Positions 1 through 12,446 of a stretch of 64,000 bases of DNA are shown one piece after another (position 1 is the first letter of the stretch; each line of letters starts with the position of its first letter). The stretch is from Legionellales bacterium (GTDB lineage: Bacteria > Pseudomonadota > Gammaproteobacteria > Eutrophobiales > Eutrophobiaceae), in contig PBJS01000024.1 in NCBI GenBank assembly GCA_002721165.1, positions 1,918 through 65,917 of the forward strand, written 5' to 3'. The notes beneath the pieces were generated by a model, which searched no databases, was not told the DNA's origin, and saw only the letters and a program-made list of their open reading frames with translations. A program made the translations under genes and the position numbers.

Positions 1-92
1 GCTGAATGCACAAAAGCTAAACAAAGTAGCCCACTAATAAAAAAAAACTTACCCGCCTTTTGTAATTTGTAGTTAACTAAGGACATGATTTT

Positions 93-1958
93 CTATTTAA
101 CGTCAAACTCGACTGTGTATGGATGAATATCAATCATCCATTCATTAATCCGTTTTTCCATATCAAGTGTTGCACCAACAAATTTCATAAAATAAATTGG
201 CTCTGCACGGCTACGCATCCTTACTGATAATTTGTATGTGCCAGGCTTTTTAATTAAATCTCCTGAGACTTTATACTTCGCATCACGATGCGCTAATGGA
301 GGAATAGAACGTCCTTCCATTCTGGCAAATGGAGGGTGGTTCATAACCGTTGTTGGCTGACCGGCTGGCCTTAGCATGGGGAGCTGATCGATATCAAAAT
401 TAACTGGTAGATACATCTCCCGATCAGTTCCTTTAAGATTTGTTGTCAAAAATTTTGTTTGTAAATTAAAGAGCTGATCATCATGTTCGATTGTTCCCTC
501 AGCTAATTCTATTGAATGAAGATCAACCATATCGCCATATTTATCAACATAACCAGATTCAAACACGCGCTCCCCATCAGGATCGGTAAGCACAACGTTT
601 AACCAAATCTCAGGCTGCGCCCCTAATGATCCAGATGGAAGATTATGACCTTCATCAACGTTGGTTACTCGATACCGAAAATTTAAATCTTTACCTATTT
701 CTGGGCCGCCTTTATCAAAAAAAGGTCCATCAATACGACTTCCGTTCTCCATAACAGCAAGACGATCAAGACGTTTATTTTCCAAAAGTTTTTCGTTTTG
801 ACCAATTATGTACCTTGCTTCTTCGCGTACTTTTCGTGCTGACCATATCTCCGGAAATTCTGGGGTCTCAACCAGTTCCTGTTCGAGTTTATCCTCCCAA
901 TCAGGCATCCCCCATGGTTCACGATAATTAAAAGTTAGCCATTCCTTAACAGACCATTTAAGTGCACGAACATTAAATGGAAATAGACCGGGATGTGCAA
1001 TTGGATAACCGGGTCCATAAAAAGCATGGTTCGAATGTTTACGATTAGCATCGCCAACAACACGTCCGTTTACGATTGCCACGGGGCCTGTATCATAACC
1101 TTTTGCCTCACCAGGTATTTTCCCCATATGACAATCTTGGCACGTCACTCCTTTTCTAAAAGCAGGACTATCTCTATACTGTTCCCAAACTACTTCTAGC
1201 TTGATGCCTATGTTAACTGCCACCTGATGGCATGACACACAAAATTCCGATTGCCCAATCGTTTCAAAAACCTTAGCGCCACCATGAATAGGGAAACCCT
1301 CTTCTTCAGGGCTAGTTGATATTTTATAAAAATCACGTTCGGCTATTACTTCGGCAACACCGGGAGCGTCTCCAGTATTATAAACGGGCTCATAAATACT
1401 ACCTGGGTTTACATGTCGCTCACCATTAACCTTAAAGAATGATTGATTAACCCTGTGGCATGTGATGCATGTTATTCCCTCTCTTGCCACTAACGAACGT
1501 TCCCACAGAGGTGATTCTCTGGGTTCGCCAATCTGAGTCCCGACTTGTTGATGACAGCGCACACAAAAACTGCCCATAGTGCCAGATGTTAGTGCATTGA
1601 CTGCCTGTTCAAATTTATGAAACATCGGCGAGATTGACGCATAAGCGTGGTTTGATGATGCCCATTCAGTAAAAATTCGCTGGTGACAACGGCCGCATAA
1701 TGCCGCCGACGGATATTGTGATTGCTTTAATATCTCAAGATGAGGGTCAATACCTCCGCCCCCACCAAGTAATTTTGGTTCAACATCACTAACCAATCTT
1801 TCCCACTGAGCTTCATAATCCTCGGGGAGCTTATGATTTTGATCGATGATTGACTCATCAGCTAAAGAAAATCTAGAAAATACAAAAAGGATCAGTAAAT
1901 AAAGTGTTGTCTTAAAAAACACCACAAAATATCTGTTTTGATGTATCTGTGTTTTCAT
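93..1958 (-). CDS. Secreted multiheme c-type cytochrome (five CXXCH) with a ~300 aa non-heme C-terminal domain
   Basis: N-terminal signal peptide (MKTQ...FSLADE). Heme motifs CGRCH, CVRCH, CITCH, CVSCH, CQDCH. An EWASSNHA motif resembles the NrfA/c554/HAO superfamily. A GHNLPSG motif sits in the C-terminal domain. Confidence 0.8.
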   Translation of the reverse strand: MKTQIHQNRYFVVFFKTTLYLLILFVFSRFSLADESIIDQNHKLPEDYEAQWERLVSDVEPKLLGGGGGIDPHLEILKQSQYPSAALCGRCHQRIFTEWASSNHAYASISPMFHKFEQAVNALTSGTMGSFCVRCHQQVGTQIGEPRESPLWERSLVAREGITCITCHRVNQSFFKVNGERHVNPGSIYEPVYNTGDAPGVAEVIAERDFYKISTSPEEEGFPIHGGAKVFETIGQSEFCVSCHQVAVNIGIKLEVVWEQYRDSPAFRKGVTCQDCHMGKIPGEAKGYDTGPVAIVNGRVVGDANRKHSNHAFYGPGYPIAHPGLFPFNVRALKWSVKEWLTFNYREPWGMPDWEDKLEQELVETPEFPEIWSARKVREEARYIIGQNEKLLENKRLDRLAVMENGSRIDGPFFDKGGPEIGKDLNFRYRVTNVDEGHNLPSGSLGAQPEIWLNVVLTDPDGERVFESGYVDKYGDMVDLHSIELAEGTIEHDDQLFNLQTKFLTTNLKGTDREMYLPVNFDIDQLPMLRPAGQPTTVMNHPPFARMEGRSIPPLAHRDAKYKVSGDLIKKPGTYKLSVRMRSRAEPIYFMKFVGATLDMEKRINEWMIDIHPYTVEFDVK

Positions 1959-2055
1959 AAAAAAATATTATCCAACTATATTACTCTATAAAACATCACT
2001 CACAATTTTGAACGAGGGTTCACTCATCGTGATTATAGTAGACTCGTTATCATCG

Positions 2056-3408
2056 CTATTTCTTTGAGATCTGCATTTCAGTTTCTACGGCAGCCTTTAT
2101 ACTTTCAATTGCTTTAACAAATTCCGAAGGGCGATATTTTTCATCATATTTAACTGCTTCATAAGCCATATCCATTGCAGTTTTTACTTTTTTTATCGTC
2201 GCACCCTTTAACATTCCCGCATCTTTCATCGCCTCAACAACACTACCAATCGAATAAGTAGCCTGCTCTGCAGCTATATAATTTACGTATTCTCCATGAA
2301 GACCAAACTCTATAAGCGCATTAAGCACCTTGCTCATTTCACCACCAGTGAAACTATGTTTGTTGATTTTTTGCACAACTCCTTGAATTGTTTGCTTCAA
2401 TGTCTTAGCCGCATCATAAGTCGCATCACCGCCTTTCATCGAGGACTGATGTAATATCCTTGCATCATCTTCAATGCGTTTCCCTAGCTCAGGATCAACA
2501 ACTGAAGTAACAACTCTTAACAACACAATATTTGCATCATTTAATTTAGGTATGCCAGGATCCAGACCTACGCTATCTCTCCTCTCCCAACGAAGATTAG
2601 ACATTGGGTGATGACAGGCATGGCAGTCAAAAAAGACCAACTCTGGAAAAATACCCTGACGATTACGTTTTTTATCTGTCAATGCATCTAAGGTTTCATT
2701 TACAGCAACAGCTTGACCAATCGCCCAGGTTTTAACACCGTTAGACCAAGTCTTTCGTTGCCTATAATCAGCATCAACACGATAGTGTGCCGGTTGGGTA
2801 GCTGTGTATGTATCAAGCTCAAAAGATAATCGTGGGTGTCCAGCGCCCATAATCTTATGGGTAAGAAATTTATTTTTTGTACCGTAGTGACAACTAAGAC
2901 AAAGCTTTGCTCTGGCTATTGGTTGCTCAGTTGGATATTGGCCTGCTTCTATATTTTCTTTACGTCCACCTACACCTGCAACATGGATACCGAGCCATTG
3001 CTCTGCGCCCCCGTGACAGGCCTCACAAGTTACACCATCATTTAATGTAAAATTTTTGGCACGTTTTGCTTTTGGGACATTATTCGCATGGCAATTAAGA
3101 CATGTATCATCTTTTTGTGGATCTTCGATACCTAAATTCTTCGCAATACGTAAGGCTCGTTCTTTGCCTAATGTTTTATAAGCACGAGCATGATGGTCGT
3201 ATTTTTTCCAAGTAATTGCCTCGTTTTGAAGTACTGATGAGTTCTGCCATGGCTTGACTGCCCCGTGGCAAGTCGAACCTGCGCAAGTCTGCACACCCAA
3301 GTGCATTGCATCTCCATATTGCGGTAGAGTTTCCGCTTTAAGAATTGAAACTTGAATTATTGATGATAATCCAAGTATAAAAAAAACGTATCTGAAGCCT
3401 TTATTCAT
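2056..3408 (-). CDS. Secreted multiheme c-type cytochrome (four CXXCH plus one CX4CH) with a helical C-terminal domain
   Basis: Motifs CLNCH, CEACH, CLSCH, CHACH, plus CAGSTCH. The signal peptide begins at MNKGFRYVFFILGL (Met15 of the track ORF). A GGGG Shine-Dalgarno-like stretch lies upstream of that Met. The track's alternative start is 3450. Confidence 0.75.
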   Translation of the reverse strand: MNKGFRYVFFILGLSSIIQVSILKAETLPQYGDAMHLGVQTCAGSTCHGAVKPWQNSSVLQNEAITWKKYDHHARAYKTLGKERALRIAKNLGIEDPQKDDTCLNCHANNVPKAKRAKNFTLNDGVTCEACHGGAEQWLGIHVAGVGGRKENIEAGQYPTEQPIARAKLCLSCHYGTKNKFLTHKIMGAGHPRLSFELDTYTATQPAHYRVDADYRQRKTWSNGVKTWAIGQAVAVNETLDALTDKKRNRQGIFPELVFFDCHACHHPMSNLRWERRDSVGLDPGIPKLNDANIVLLRVVTSVVDPELGKRIEDDARILHQSSMKGGDATYDAAKTLKQTIQGVVQKINKHSFTGGEMSKVLNALIEFGLHGEYVNYIAAEQATYSIGSVVEAMKDAGMLKGATIKKVKTAMDMAYEAVKYDEKYRPSEFVKAIESIKAAVETEMQISKK

Positions 3409-3480
3409 ATTGTTATTTGCCCCGTGGGTACTTTCATTAATTATACCCAAACTGCTATTGAATTTTTATCATAATAAACC

Positions 3481-3492
3481 GCTCTTTCGAGC
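3481..3492 (-). terminator. Small GCTC-GAAA-GAGC hairpin followed by a U-rich tract, downstream of tRNA-Ser
   Basis: Inverted repeat gctctttcgagc on the plus strand. On the minus-strand RNA it forms a tetraloop hairpin followed by GGUUUAUUAUG. It lies between tRNA-Ser and the cytochrome operon. Confidence 0.3.
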
Positions 3493-3577
3493 ATTTACAA
3501 TATCACTGGAATACACGATGAATCAACAAGTTGGCTGTAATAATGAAATTTGTCTTAACATTTATCAAAAAAATTAT

Positions 3578-3669
3578 TGGCGGAGAGGGAGGGATTCGAA
3601 CCCTCGATACGGGATAAACCGTATACTCCCTTAGCAGGGGAGCGCCTTCAGCCACTCGGCCACCTCTCC
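3578..3669 (-). tRNA. serV: tRNA-Ser (anticodon GCU) with a long variable arm and encoded CCA
   Basis: Reverse complement folds as a cloverleaf. The 7-bp acceptor stem is GGAGAGG/CCTCTCC. The anticodon loop is CUGCUAA and the T-arm is GAGGG-TTCGAAT-CCCTC. It sits downstream of csrA, as in E. coli. Confidence 0.9.
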
Positions 3670-9553: not shown

Positions 9554-10444
9554 ATGGCAAAACAAAAAGTAACGATGGATGAAATTAAGTGGGGTACACG
9601 GCAACGTCTGCAATATATCGAATTAATGGCGTTTTATGCCGGGGTAATTACGCGAAGTGATATTGCTAAGGCATTCGCTATCTCAGATGCGGCTGCGACT
9701 AAAGATTTAAAATTCTACAGTGAAATCGCACCCGATAATCTGATCTACAAACACAGCGTATTCGGCTTTGTCCCCAGTAGCTCATTTCGTGAGGTCTTCG
9801 CTGATTTATCACCAGCGGTGGCATTATCAATATTTGAAGCAAATTTTATTATCTCAAGCATTCCAAATATTGATAATCATATGTTTGGCATCCCTACTTC
9901 TGGATTAACCTTGCCAAACCGACTACCAAAAAAATCAGTGCTAGCACAAATTACTCGTTCTATATGTAGTAAGAAAAAATTAAAGGTTAGTTACCATTCA
10001 CTAACTGAAAAGGCACAGCCAACGAAAAGAATTATCGAGCCGCATTCGCTCGTCAACACGGGTTTTCGTTGGCATGTCCGCGCCTATAGTGAGGAGAGTT
10101 TTGATTTTCGGGATTTTGTCCTTTCCCGTTTTATAAGTGCAAAATGCCTTGATGATGAAGTCGAATCAAATGAATTATATGATGATGATTGGGTAGAAAT
10201 AATATCACTTGAACTCGCTCCTCATCCGAAACTTATTAAAGAAAAACAGAAAAGTTTACTGCTTGATTACAGTGCTAATAAAAATGTGATCAGCATTAAA
10301 GTAAGACGTGCGCTAATTGGGTACTTACTACAACAACTTTCTGTCGACACCACAATTGATCACTCATTAAATCCAAATAAATATCAACTTATTGTACTTA
10401 ATCGAGATGAAATCGAGCCTTTTGCGAGCTGGGCATTTGATTAG
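9554..10444 (+). CDS. HTH-WYL-WCX family transcriptional regulator (PafBC/DriD/BrxR/CapW-like)
   Basis: The N-terminus is a winged-HTH-like segment (SDIAKAFAISDAAATKDLKFY). The central motif GFRWHVRAYSEESFDFRDFVLSRF matches the WYL domain. A C-terminal extension follows. The gene is divergent from recA. Confidence 0.7.
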   Translation: MAKQKVTMDEIKWGTRQRLQYIELMAFYAGVITRSDIAKAFAISDAAATKDLKFYSEIAPDNLIYKHSVFGFVPSSSFREVFADLSPAVALSIFEANFIISSIPNIDNHMFGIPTSGLTLPNRLPKKSVLAQITRSICSKKKLKVSYHSLTEKAQPTKRIIEPHSLVNTGFRWHVRAYSEESFDFRDFVLSRFISAKCLDDEVESNELYDDDWVEIISLELAPHPKLIKEKQKSLLLDYSANKNVISIKVRRALIGYLLQQLSVDTTIDHSLNPNKYQLIVLNRDEIEPFASWAFD

Positions 10445-10464
10445 TTAACAAGTAGGAGGAAAAA

Positions 10465-10734
10465 ATGAAAGAGTTTTGGTTTACACCTAAAAATTATGGC
10501 AATGGGTTCTACCCTTCTTCTTGGCAAGGATGGTTAATCATCCTAATTGCCCTTGCATTAATTTGTGCAGCTTTTTATCTCAGTAATCCTTTTGAATATA
10601 AAACAACTGAACAAGCCATAAATGATTGGCTACGTTTTATTATCGATTTTATCGTGATTCACACTGTATATTTTGTTCTTGTTAAAGATAGGGTAAAGGG
10701 TGGAGTGAGATGGCGTTGGGGGAAAGAAAATTAA
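10465..10734 (+). CDS. Small hypothetical inner-membrane protein (two predicted TM helices)
   Basis: Strong Shine-Dalgarno AGGAGG 6 nt upstream of the ATG, 20 nt after the WYL gene stop. Hydrophobic segments GWLIILIALALICAAFYL and FIIDFIVIHTVYFVLV. Confidence 0.65.
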   Translation: MKEFWFTPKNYGNGFYPSSWQGWLIILIALALICAAFYLSNPFEYKTTEQAINDWLRFIIDFIVIHTVYFVLVKDRVKGGVRWRWGKEN

Positions 10735-10743
10735 ACAATCTTT

Positions 10744-11241
10744 TTAATCTGAGGTCTTTTGCAGAATATCAAGCAGTCCTTGCATTGCTAAAAGACAAGA
10801 TTGCTCCCTTACTCTTCGACGGTCTCCTTCAAAATGAATGCACGTTGTATTACCACCCTTGTCTCTTTCGCACCATGCAACACAAACTGTCCCAACGGGT
10901 TTTTCTTCACTCCCCCCATCAGGCCCCGCAACTCCTGTAATTGAGACACTAAAATCTGCAGAACTCATATCAAGCGCACCTTTTGCCATAGCAAGCGCTG
11001 TCTCTTCGCTAACGGCACCAAATTCCTCCAGCGTATCAATGGGAACAGCTAAAAGATCCCGTTTTGATTGGTTTGAGTAAGTCACAAACCCGCATTCATA
11101 CCATAACGAACTACCAGGCAGCTGTGTTAAATTCTCTGCTAAGCCACCGCCTGTACATGATTCAGCGGTAACGAGTTTTTTTGAAGCTTTTAAAAATCGT
11201 TCAGCTAACTGTTCAACTAAAACTTGAGTGGCATTCGTCAT
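10744..11241 (-). CDS. pncC: NMN amidohydrolase PncC (CinA C-terminal domain protein, YgaD-like)
   Basis: 165 aa. TAESCTGGGLA and FVTYSN motifs. ITGVAGPDGGSEEKPVGTV aligns closely with E. coli YgaD. Confidence 0.9.
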   Translation of the reverse strand: MTNATQVLVEQLAERFLKASKKLVTAESCTGGGLAENLTQLPGSSLWYECGFVTYSNQSKRDLLAVPIDTLEEFGAVSEETALAMAKGALDMSSADFSVSITGVAGPDGGSEEKPVGTVCVAWCERDKGGNTTCIHFEGDRRRVREQSCLLAMQGLLDILQKTSD

Positions 11242-11699
11242 GACTTTTTTAATCTTTTTTCTTTAAAAAAATTTTTAATTAATGCTTGGCATTCTTTTTC
11301 TAAAACACCTTTTTTAATTTCAGTATTATGGTTTAATTCCTCTGCTTGAATCATATTAAAAACACTACCACATGCGCCTGTTTTTTGATCGTCAACAGCA
11401 TAAACAAGCTTTGCAATACGAGCATGGACCATAGCTCCTGCACACATAACACAAGGTTCAAGCGTGACATACATAGTAGAATCTAAAAGGCGATAGTTGC
11501 CAATTTTTTCTCCCGCATCTTGTAATGCCATAATCTCAGCATGCGCCGTGGGGTTATTTGATGAGATAGGTTGGTTCCAGCCCTCACCAATGATTTTATT
11601 TTTATAAACAATGATGGCGCCAACCGGTACCTCATCCCTCTCTTCAGATTTTTTAGCAAGCTGAAGTGCATATTGCATCCATTCTTCATCAATATTCAT
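11238..11699 (-). CDS. tadA: tRNA-specific adenosine deaminase TadA
   Basis: HAEIMAL and PCVMCAGAM zinc-deaminase motifs. 153 aa. Confidence 0.9.
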   Translation of the reverse strand: MNIDEEWMQYALQLAKKSEERDEVPVGAIIVYKNKIIGEGWNQPISSNNPTAHAEIMALQDAGEKIGNYRLLDSTMYVTLEPCVMCAGAMVHARIAKLVYAVDDQKTGACGSVFNMIQAEELNHNTEIKKGVLEKECQALIKNFFKEKRLKKS

Positions 11700-11714
11700 T
11701 AATTTATTTAATAG

Positions 11715-12446
11715 CTACGCAGATAATTTTTCATTTAACTTGATCTGTTCAGAAAAGCGTTTCTTACTTAATTCAATAAATTTTTTATCTATCTCAATGC
11801 CGATGTATTCTCTATTAGTGCGAATACATGAAACACCTGTTGTACCACTACCATTAAAAGCATCTAACACTAAATCACCCTCATTAGTTACGGCTAAAAT
11901 CAATCTATCTAATAAGGCAATGGGCTTTTGTGTTGGATGTTTATCATAAGTTTTTTCAGACTTGCCTGGTGCCGTCATCACCCACACATCTTTCATTTGT
12001 TTGTCATTATTTATTTCTTTCATCAATTCATAATTAAACTTATGTTTTGATTTAAGATTTTTAGCGGCCCAGATAATCGTTTCCGTACTATGTGTGAAAT
12101 AACGACAAGCTAGATTAGGCGGTGGGTTTGGTTTTTGCCAGGTTATATTGTTTAAAATTTTCATATTAAGTTGCTGCATTGCATAACCAATCGAATAAAT
12201 CACATGAAAAGTGCCGGAGACCATTAATGAACCGTTTGGCTTTAAGATTCTTTGGCATCTTTTTAACCATTCGTAATTAAATTGATGATTAACTTCGGCG
12301 CCATTTGATTTATCCCAATCACCCTTATCGACTTTTACCATGCGTCCATTCTGGCAAGTAATACCACCATTAGACAGAAAATATGGAGGATCGCAAAAAA
12401 TCAGATCAACAAACTCACCCCGCTCCTCGTAGAGTTTATCCATCAC
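11715..12446 (-). CDS. Beta-class N6-adenine DNA methyltransferase, CcrM/M.HinfI/YhdJ family, short form
   Basis: Motif IV DPPY lies N-terminal and motif I FNGSGTTG lies C-terminal. Long stretches align with CcrM (WLK..L...G...V.G..H; NITWQKPNPPPN; HPTQKPIALLDRLILAVTNEGDLVLDAFNGSGTTG). It lacks the CcrM C-terminal domain. Confidence 0.85.
   Translation of the reverse strand: MMDKLYEERGEFVDLIFCDPPYFLSNGGITCQNGRMVKVDKGDWDKSNGAEVNHQFNYEWLKRCQRILKPNGSLMVSGTFHVIYSIGYAMQQLNMKILNNITWQKPNPPPNLACRYFTHSTETIIWAAKNLKSKHKFNYELMKEINNDKQMKDVWVMTAPGKSEKTYDKHPTQKPIALLDRLILAVTNEGDLVLDAFNGSGTTGVSCIRTNREYIGIEIDKKFIELSKKRFSEQIKLNEKLSA

Follow-up and report, generated by a model that had tools for sequence, protein, structure and literature searches.

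The two adjacent minus-strand genes at positions 93 to 3450 of the 64,000-nucleotide stretch analyzed here (in the following "the window") encode the PtdA and PtdD-like subunits of an already named, uncharacterized trans-envelope redox system, ptd, whose architecture at this locus is a variant one. Categorically, the result is not new; it places two orphan cytochromes in a complete cofactor chain that would run from NAD(P)H to an outer-membrane porin and thereby provides a testable hypothesis. A preliminary description of this DNA had read the pair as a two-gene operon of secreted penta-heme cytochromes. The feature is real and the pair was described accurately, but the framing was too small: The transcription unit comprises at least ptdD, ptdA and ptdB and lies within a conserved six-gene system.

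The two open reading frames (ORFs) have the positions and lengths first given, 621 and 464 amino acids (aa): ptdA (93–1958, minus strand) starts with an ATG, and the ptdD-like gene (2056–3450, minus strand) encodes 464 aa from TTG 3450 or 450 aa from ATG 3408. The latter is likely the true start of the smaller gene, because it yields a classical signal peptide (MNKGFRYVFFILGLSSIIQVSILKA/ET), agrees with the JGI gene call on one of the public contigs introduced below (L006) and fits the lengths of the homologues (440–455 aa). Heme motifs and signal peptides confirm that both proteins are secreted multiheme c-type cytochromes; the signal peptides are of the Sec type, and neither contains a lipobox. 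The spacer between the genes (1959–2055, minus strand) spans 97 nucleotides (nt), in which a terminator scan detected no terminator-like site.

PtdA combines an N-terminal helical five-heme domain with a C-terminal immunoglobulin-like (Ig-like) β-sandwich. Its CXXCH motifs at residues 88, 132, 164, 240 and 273 use all 10 cysteines of the protein, so that none is left outside the heme motifs, and there is no in-frame TGA; by a rough composition-based estimate of our own, made with no tool, ~0.005 CXXCH motifs would be expected by chance at this protein size. None of the five motifs varies across 65 homologues; ten further histidines are invariant as well, and seven invariant non-motif histidines lie in the heme domain. 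The EWASSNHA and GHNLPSG motifs highlighted in the preliminary description are present and essentially invariant in the same homologues (W99, S102, N103, H104 and A105; G437, H438, N439, P441, S442 and G443), and the Ig-like domain at the C-terminus bears an invariant GHNLPSGSLGAQPE loop.

The count of five heme sites per protein, which stands for PtdA, requires qualification for the smaller cytochrome: It contains four CXXCH motifs (117, 142, 184 and 276) and reaches five sites only if a CX4CH motif (CAGSTCH, 56–62) binds heme as well. This motif is 97–98% conserved in 64 homologues, which moreover share exactly five conserved non-motif histidines (87, 156, 198, 205 and 222). Because the CX4CH motif and exactly five potential distal histidines are conserved, the sequence suggests five bis-His hemes as the economical reading. 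The C-terminal third of the protein is helical and free of heme motifs. PF13435 matches with 42.0 bits (gathering score 20.8, E 1.9e-10), and the family profile matches cytochrome c554 of N. europaea (1bvb) over ~90 residues with E 4.9e-6, whereas the c554 equivalog NF043010 is not reached (19 versus 400 bits). Compared with this c554 (1BVB/1FT5), the PtdD-like protein is twice as long and has in addition the fifth, CX4CH heme site and the helical C-terminal domain. The analogy with c554 would make it a soluble carrier of electrons in the periplasm.

That further partners lie to the left of coordinate 1, as had been suspected, was borne out. A third gene, ptdB (5′ end 1–86, minus strand), begins with the ATG at 86–84, 7 nt past the ptdA stop; its first 28 codons fall within the window and the remainder beyond the window edge. 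We fetched six public marine contigs (L001–L006) from at least 23 that encode the exact 621-aa protein, and on the identical contigs ptdB is followed by a convergent operon encoding a flavoprotein of 804 aa, a membrane protein of 280 aa and a decaheme cytochrome of 566 aa. In PtdB of this lineage (839 aa), a signal peptide is followed by two NTF2-like (Cds6_C) domains; next come an acidic linker, a conserved segment of ~100 aa and a barrel that ends in ...RLELRRKF. The conserved C-terminal ~490 aa were modelled as an 18-stranded outer-membrane β-barrel, a model that falls in the Occ/MOMP/AlgE/maltoporin class of that strand number. The two NTF2-like domains (L001:11873-12900) are lineage-specific: Relatives from outside measure ~495–545 aa and do not have them. 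Elsewhere in the database, the Cds6_C domain is found in Ser/Thr-kinase and TPR proteins (P0274, P0275).

The flavoprotein unites a Pyr_redox domain, two domains binding cyclic nucleotide monophosphates (cNMP; PF00027) and 4Fe-4S ferredoxin domains (Fer4). It carries a conserved GxGxxG motif for FAD and a second dinucleotide motif, GxGxxA; its best NCBIfam similarity is to flavoproteins of the YpdA/TrxR type, whose redox-active cysteine pair is absent. Both cNMP cassettes are canonical, with a GE...R[ST]A phosphate-binding signature, and 16 cysteines, all 100% conserved, are arranged in four ferredoxin-type groups. The membrane protein has about five hydrophobic helices. Its histidine pairs His87/101 and His258/272 (97–100% conserved) show a His-x13-His spacing, are located in the third and fifth hydrophobic helices and, judged by this pattern, are the classical signature of two b-hemes predicted to be stacked across the membrane; the long basic loop 135–245 would be cytoplasmic. 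The decaheme contains 10 CXXCH motifs (100% conserved) and 10 further conserved histidines. In 32 of the 33 sequences compared, it begins with an FHA-like region of ~140 residues followed by a transmembrane helix at ~145–165, the exception being an N-terminally short ORF of 478 aa (L028); the Pfam FHA model matches the decaheme (gene L001:14400-16100) with E 2.4e-4. Because the FHA-like region precedes a single transmembrane helix, the decaheme is probably fixed to the inner membrane by this helix, its FHA-like domain being cytoplasmic. It is unusual for a c-type cytochrome to carry a phosphothreonine-binding domain; its presence points to control by way of kinases or to a docking site for the flavoprotein.

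These genes correspond to ptdABCDEFG, a cluster named in a bioRxiv preprint from Alphaproteobacteria of the oxygen-deficient zone (ODZ) and other marine metagenome-assembled genomes (MAGs) (10.1101/2023.11.21.568154). The passages of the preprint on the cluster describe PtdB as a porin next to PtdA, PtdC as an FAD/NAD(P)-binding flavohemoprotein-like oxidoreductase, PtdD as a periplasmic tetraheme cytochrome, PtdE as a cNMP-binding protein with 4Fe-4S sites, PtdF as a small transmembrane ferric-reductase-like protein and PtdG as a decaheme (10.1101/2023.11.21.568154). Measured against these passages, six of the seven parts, PtdA among them, have a counterpart in the cluster studied here, the features given for PtdB, PtdD, PtdE, PtdF and PtdG all being found; for PtdD these are the signal peptide and four CXXCH motifs, to which the additional CX4CH motif is joined as the putative fifth. 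A separate PtdC was not detected within 10 kb on L001; instead, a non-homologous Pyr_redox domain is fused to PtdE. The hosts are marine Proteobacteria in both cases, whereas the gene order D-A-B convergent with E-F-G and the two extra NTF2-like domains of PtdB set the present cluster apart from the one described in those passages. The preprint furthermore gives the penta-heme cytochrome c552 of Thermochromatium tepidum as a relative of PtdA, the same protein that we found, reports transcription of ptdAB at ~500–900 fragments per kilobase per million (FPKM) in the ODZ and calls the function of ptd 'completely unknown', suggesting extracellular electron transfer, iron reduction or nitrogen cycling (10.1101/2023.11.21.568154).

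To what these passages contain, our analysis adds the putative fifth (CX4CH) heme site in PtdD, a PtdG that appears to be membrane-anchored with a cytoplasmic FHA-like domain and not simply periplasmic, four predicted Fe-S cysteine groups in place of two clusters, a barrel modelled in the 18-strand class, and what seems to be an occurrence of the family in freshwater, groundwater and soil genomes as well. Our literature search found the name ptd in no other paper; the literature on electron uptake by Thioclava electrotropha and Tenderiales (Uet) and a search for 'FHA + multiheme + porin' returned no description of the cluster, and the paper on MHCscan was not specific. Clear orthology to a well-characterized cytochrome, which the preliminary description had named as grounds for abandoning its reading, was not encountered, because the ptd system has been named in a preprint yet not characterized.

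The six proteins were compared by tblastn with 80 genome loci encoding a PtdA relative, which come from Alpha-, Beta- and Gammaproteobacteria and a few MAGs labelled otherwise. Across dozens of these loci the proteins are repeatedly co-located, in several gene orders. A PtdB homologue adjoins PtdA in 72 of the 75 loci with enough sequence, preceding it in three Nevskiales-type loci and following it in the others. The smaller cytochrome is encoded in 47/80 loci, in one or two copies; flavoprotein, membrane protein and decaheme are found together in ~30, and the Pyr_redox flavoprotein is fused to PtdE in 31/80. Kordiimonadales IMCC3096 (L068) represents a seven-gene type, with a PtdE that is devoid of the flavin domain and a separate FNR-like gene with NAD_binding_1 and 2Fe-2S domains. 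No other component comes close to PtdA in conservation: Across proteobacterial classes its identity is ~65%, and beyond the lineage the median amounts to 66%, compared with 32–51% for the other measured components and 45–69% for the porin.

Among the matches listed, two ocean MAGs labelled 'uncultured Legionellales' are the nearest genome records, with 90% and 86% identity for the 621-aa protein. PtdA-specific peptide patterns retrieved at least 568 stretches encoding a PtdA relative from 185,579 species-representative genomes, and metagenomic homologues number thousands. PtdA thus represents a large family, transcribed in the ocean according to the preprint (10.1101/2023.11.21.568154), for which a concrete and testable cofactor path can now be proposed. 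Cultured carriers include Solimonas terrae and Kordiimonadales IMCC3096 from this analysis, and Roseibium aggregatum, Tistlia consotensis and Sulfidibacter corallicola from a table of the preprint (10.1101/2023.11.21.568154). By their record titles and isolate names, the loci L044, L053-L056, L063, L067, L073 and L074 seem to derive from groundwater, from a lake (Baikal) and from the soil/freshwater genera Solimonas, Nevskia and Hydrogenophaga. Contrary to what a figure legend of the preprint implies, the Ptd family does not seem to be confined to saline habitats (10.1101/2023.11.21.568154).

Arranged on paper, the cofactors of the system follow the order FAD, Fe-S, two heme b, 10 + 5 + 5 heme c, porin. 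We consider it reasonably probable that they constitute a quinone-independent export chain by which electrons of NAD(P)H reach PtdA at the porin, with PtdA as the terminal oxidoreductase for a soluble or chelated oxidant. Such a chain would be initiated by oxidation of NAD(P)H by the cytoplasmic flavoprotein, a TrxR/YpdA-like FAD/NAD(P)H module equipped with two cNMP domains and four Fe-S groups. In the next step, the membrane protein would move the electrons across the inner membrane on its two stacked b-hemes, the membrane-anchored decaheme would take them up in the periplasm, and the c554-like five-heme PtdD would ferry them onward to PtdA, whose five-heme cap and Ig-like stem would be seated at the 18-stranded PtdB. 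There, PtdA might act on a soluble or chelated oxidant that either passes through PtdB or is presented by it: Fe(III) complexes are the first candidates, O2, N-oxides and iodate the alternatives. The flux of electrons may be gated by cyclic nucleotides. Gene content, cofactor motifs and their conservation, folds, synteny and the match to the published description of ptd are what the analysis shows; the order of electron transfer, the outward direction, the role of PtdA as catalytic end and the substrate are inferred.

The proposed chain would account for a peculiarity of the locus. A quinol dehydrogenase of the NapC/NrfH/CymA type, which the preliminary description had not seen in the window, was not found by us either; its absence is explained if the NAD(P)H flavoprotein/Fe-S/di-heme-b module bypasses the quinone pool. 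The best available evidence for NAD(P)H as the cytoplasmic partner is that two non-homologous NAD(P)H-flavin modules, the fused Pyr_redox domain and the separate FNR-like protein, fill the same position. Moreover, the input module follows a familiar logic: In NOX, FRO and MsrQ proteins, electrons flow from NAD(P)H via flavin to two stacked b-hemes, held in the third and fifth helices by pairs of histidines with a spacing of 13 residues, and from there to an acceptor outside. The predicted Ptd module shares this NAD(P)H-flavin-two-b-heme logic, and differs from NOX/FRO/MsrQ in its separate subunits, the four Fe-S groups between flavin and hemes, five predicted helices instead of six, and ~20 c-hemes downstream.

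The direction of flow is suggested to be outward, because the layout is NOX-like and because electrons moving inward would have to overcome the membrane potential and climb uphill to NAD(P)+. The opposite direction would mean that PtdA oxidizes a donor in the periplasm or outside the cell (Fe(II), reduced sulfur, hydroxylamine/NO or a cathode) and that the electrons are delivered to NAD(P)+ or cytoplasmic Fe-S acceptors, a reverse electron flow to the benefit of autotrophs such as nitrite oxidizers. We regard such uptake as quite improbable: On bioenergetic grounds, a two-heme transmembrane wire leading inward opposes the membrane potential, the reduction of NAD(P)+ at −320 mV from c-hemes runs strongly uphill while the cluster shows no site for coupling, and most carriers look heterotrophic by their names and by general knowledge. 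What speaks for it is that all cofactors are in principle reversible, that c552, the closest structural relative of PtdA, comes from a sulfur-oxidizing phototroph, and that the cluster is carried by Nitrospina and Nitrospirales (10.1101/2023.11.21.568154).

Turning to PtdA itself, no curated family claims either window cytochrome: Pfam yields generic multiheme domains only, of which PF13435 exceeds its cut-off in either protein, the scores of all enzyme and conduit models of NCBIfam stay far under the respective cut-offs for both, and sequence searches of the PDB gave weak matches only (28pb, 5ze8, 6i5b and 1bvb). The two proteins are not supported as paralogues of each other either, since hhalign assigned a probability of 27% over one heme-motif stretch only. 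The kinship with the NrfA/HAO superfamily that had initially been suspected dissolved into local heme-motif matches far under the curated cut-offs, and the same applies to TorC, NapC and OTR. We therefore regard it as very unlikely that PtdA belongs to the NrfA/HAO/ONR superfamily as a periplasmic enzyme acting on N-oxides, that is, a reductase or oxidase of nitrite, hydroxylamine or NO, given that the defining features of NrfA and HAO are missing. NrfA needs a CXXCK active-site heme and a whole-protein match to PF02335/TIGR03152/NF008339, and neither is found in PtdA; HAO and the octaheme reductases have eight hemes rather than five, and PtdA scores 11.2 versus 900 bits with the hydrazine dehydrogenase model and 14 versus 375 bits with Octaheme_Shew. 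PDB sequence matches of PtdA to octaheme nitrite reductase have E ~1. On the other side stand weak local matches of PF02335 and NrfA models around heme 5 (PF02335: 17.4 bits over 27 residues, cut-off 24.1), the assignment of PtdA to COG3303 and the co-occurrence with highly transcribed nod genes in MAGs from the ODZ, both reported in the preprint (10.1101/2023.11.21.568154), and the Y-shaped five-heme core of nitrite reductase, which is shared by c552 and by the polysulfide reductase MccSep (10.1101/2025.11.18.688581).

The closest structural relative of PtdA is the low-potential penta-heme c552 of T. tepidum (PDB 5ZE8), with an identity of only 16%. It comprises 435 residues compared with 621 in PtdA, the extra length of which resides mainly in the C-terminal half with its large invariant loops. 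We know of no porin partner for c552, and the function of c552 itself is, to our knowledge, not known. A second point of reference is MccSep/ExtKL of Geobacter sulfurreducens, a periplasmic pentaheme selenoprotein that acts as polysulfide reductase, in which a cysteine and a selenocysteine (Sec) from an Ig-like domain complete the active site at heme 2 and whose heme core has been compared with that of c552 (10.1101/2025.11.18.688581). PtdA resembles MccSep in its N-terminal helical five-heme cap and C-terminal Ig-like stem. The MccSep gene belongs to the extHIJKL cluster, which also encodes an outer-membrane barrel. MccSep, however, needs a heme-ligating cysteine as well as the Sec or cysteine of the Ig-like domain, whereas PtdA has no cysteine beyond its CXXCH motifs; the ExtKL model NF040886 gives 27.9 versus 250 bits on PtdA, and the electron input differs, too. 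Because PtdA has neither a free cysteine nor Sec, it does not share the chemistry of MccSep. The example of MccSep nevertheless illustrates that a cap-and-stem protein may serve as an enzyme of the periplasm and not as a wire.

A wire is what the preprint puts forward as its leading suggestion, in the form of a porin-cytochrome conduit (10.1101/2023.11.21.568154). According to this explanation, which would be of the MtrAB/PioAB/Geobacter Ext type, PtdA is inserted in PtdB and a surface-exposed heme reduces, or else oxidizes, insoluble Fe/Mn minerals, electrodes or partner cells. The neighborhood of a multiheme gene and a barrel gene in 72/75 loci, the long periplasmic heme chain upstream, the conserved ~100-aa segment before the barrel, which could thread or plug it, and the iron reduction reported at the depth of ptdAB transcription (10.1101/2023.11.21.568154) are all consistent with it. 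The MtrCAB, PioAB and MtoAB systems likewise have a multiheme cytochrome gene beside a barrel gene and further periplasmic multihemes that feed the conduit. In these systems, however, the barrel has 26 strands and surrounds a ten-heme rod, as opposed to an 18-strand-class barrel and a five-heme cap-and-stem protein in Ptd, which moreover has no surface decaheme and would receive its electrons from NAD(P)H, not from quinol via CymA/ImcH. The 26 strands of the MtrB barrel are required to house MtrA. A decaheme rod of the MtrA/DmsE kind does not describe PtdA, which scores 33.8 versus 192 bits with TIGR03508, has five hemes and is paired with a barrel modelled in the 18-strand class, not with ~26 strands. 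With barrel class and PtdA shape both disfavoring an MtrAB-type arrangement, we consider the wire unlikely. PtdA as a periplasmic terminal oxidoreductase is favored over it because of the extreme conservation of PtdA, its large invariant Ig-loops, the 18-strand-class barrel and the lack of an encoded surface cytochrome.

As to the oxidant, Fe(III) complexes are our first guess, because the system conserves no energy and looks assimilatory or protective, and because genes for PepSY_TM and FMN_bind proteins are located nearby, a lineage-specific and weak indication. PepSY_TM and FMN_bind genes are of a kind associated with periplasmic ferric reduction. Those found here encode a PepSY_TM protein of 239 aa and a secreted FMN_bind protein of 175 aa; together with a porin-like gene (PF13609/Porin_O_P) they occupy L001:19774-21866, directly upstream of and co-directional with the flavoprotein operon. 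The PepSY_TM and FMN_bind genes also occur in L008 but not in other taxa. The group may represent a second reductase module of the periplasm, which hints weakly at iron reduction.

Should a quinone-independent export of electrons from NAD(P)H be confirmed, it would constitute a new envelope-spanning route of electron transfer in aerobes, with a bearing on marine iron, reactive-oxygen and nitrogen chemistry. A more specific version, which we put forward tentatively and consider doubtful, sees the system as a subunit-split analogue of NADPH oxidase or ferric reductase with ~20 c-hemes and cNMP gating, by which aerobic planktonic bacteria would spend NAD(P)H and, through PtdA at its porin, reduce organically complexed Fe(III) for uptake, or O2 to extracellular superoxide. 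If true, reductive iron acquisition or 'dark' superoxide production by marine heterotrophs would gain the molecular basis it has been missing.

Several points weigh against PtdA as the terminal oxidoreductase of an NAD(P)H-driven export chain. The seven invariant histidines of its heme domain would suffice for five bis-His hemes, and if all hemes were bis-His coordinated, pure electron transfer would be favored. The Ptd proteins are known from genes and models and not from experiment, and the AlphaFold2 (AF2) models are of moderate quality, with predicted local distance difference test (pLDDT) values of 70 and 59. No Pfam family matches the 280-aa membrane protein that would bridge the inner membrane. 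The identification with ptd follows the part-for-part description in the preprint passages, not an alignment. No conserved flanking genes were found: The flanks differ in every genome examined and give no clue to the substrate. On a 3.07-Mb contig (L092), linkage is limited to the genes for the smaller cytochrome, PtdA and the porin, and because ptdD-ptdA-ptdB stand alone there, the outer module can be genetically separate from the input module. Finally, the carriers listed in the preprint include nitrite oxidizers, which would gain from an inward flow (10.1101/2023.11.21.568154).

Concerning the genomic setting, the ptdD-like gene is preceded by a non-coding region (3451–3577, minus strand) and the tRNA-Ser(GCU) gene (3578–3669, minus strand), a neighbor without a functional part in the system that lies 127 nt upstream of the TTG start, or up to 169 nt at the other end of the range. 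The operon promoter is presumably located in 3451–3577, where 9 promoter-like sites were counted compared with 11.8 expected, that is, no excess over shuffled sequence. An Rfam search of the region 5′ of the pair returned the tRNA only and no regulatory RNA. A match to the Rfam family Plastid-psbl-rps4 at window positions 3581-3634 (plus strand), antisense to the tRNA-Ser, reached 49.5 bits (gathering score 68) and almost certainly arises as an artefact from the tRNA sequence.

The proximity of this tRNA had led the preliminary description to point to an integration hotspot. It is extremely improbable that the pair is cargo of a genomic island at tRNA-Ser(GCU), although the operon starts only 127–169 nt from the tRNA 3′ end and the cluster is distributed patchily over classes and phyla. 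The hotspot proposal is not supported: There is no att-like repeat and no integrase, and the flanks of the cluster in other taxa are wholly different and place it in unrelated contexts without a tRNA. That signs of a mobile island are missing had been noted from the start and was corroborated: The guanine-plus-cytosine (GC) content of the locus (0.39–0.41) equals that of its surroundings (0.32–0.42 across the window), no integrase is present, and the tRNA 3′ end is not repeated within 13.5 kb beyond. In addition, the position after csrA is kept in L008 (86% identity), as seen on the csrA side, the tRNA-Ser itself not having been checked. On the window side, the pair is neighbored by csrA, lysC, alaS, recX and recA. 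No ccm genes were detected in the 64-kb window, and CXXCH motifs are absent from all its other ORFs.

Some further observations concern other genes and regions. On L092, LemA and DUF2207 genes and one resembling ferredoxin reductase (Pyr_redox_2 + Reductase_C) come after the ptdD-ptdA-ptdB trio; genes for the flavoprotein, the membrane protein and the decaheme were not found within 10 kb. In the window, the interval between recA and guaA (9554-12446) contains genes for a WYL/BrxR-like regulator (296 aa, plus strand; on the identical contig it matches PF26109, PF13280 and PF26107), for a CinA-like and a dCMP/cytidine-deaminase-like protein and for an N6/N4 DNA methyltransferase (243 aa), and could be a small defense-related or orphan-methylase island in a housekeeping region. 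Between 18000 and 36000, the GC content is 0.32–0.36 over ~18 kb compared with 0.38–0.42 elsewhere, and the sign of the GC skew flips locally at 18–20 and 34–36 kb.

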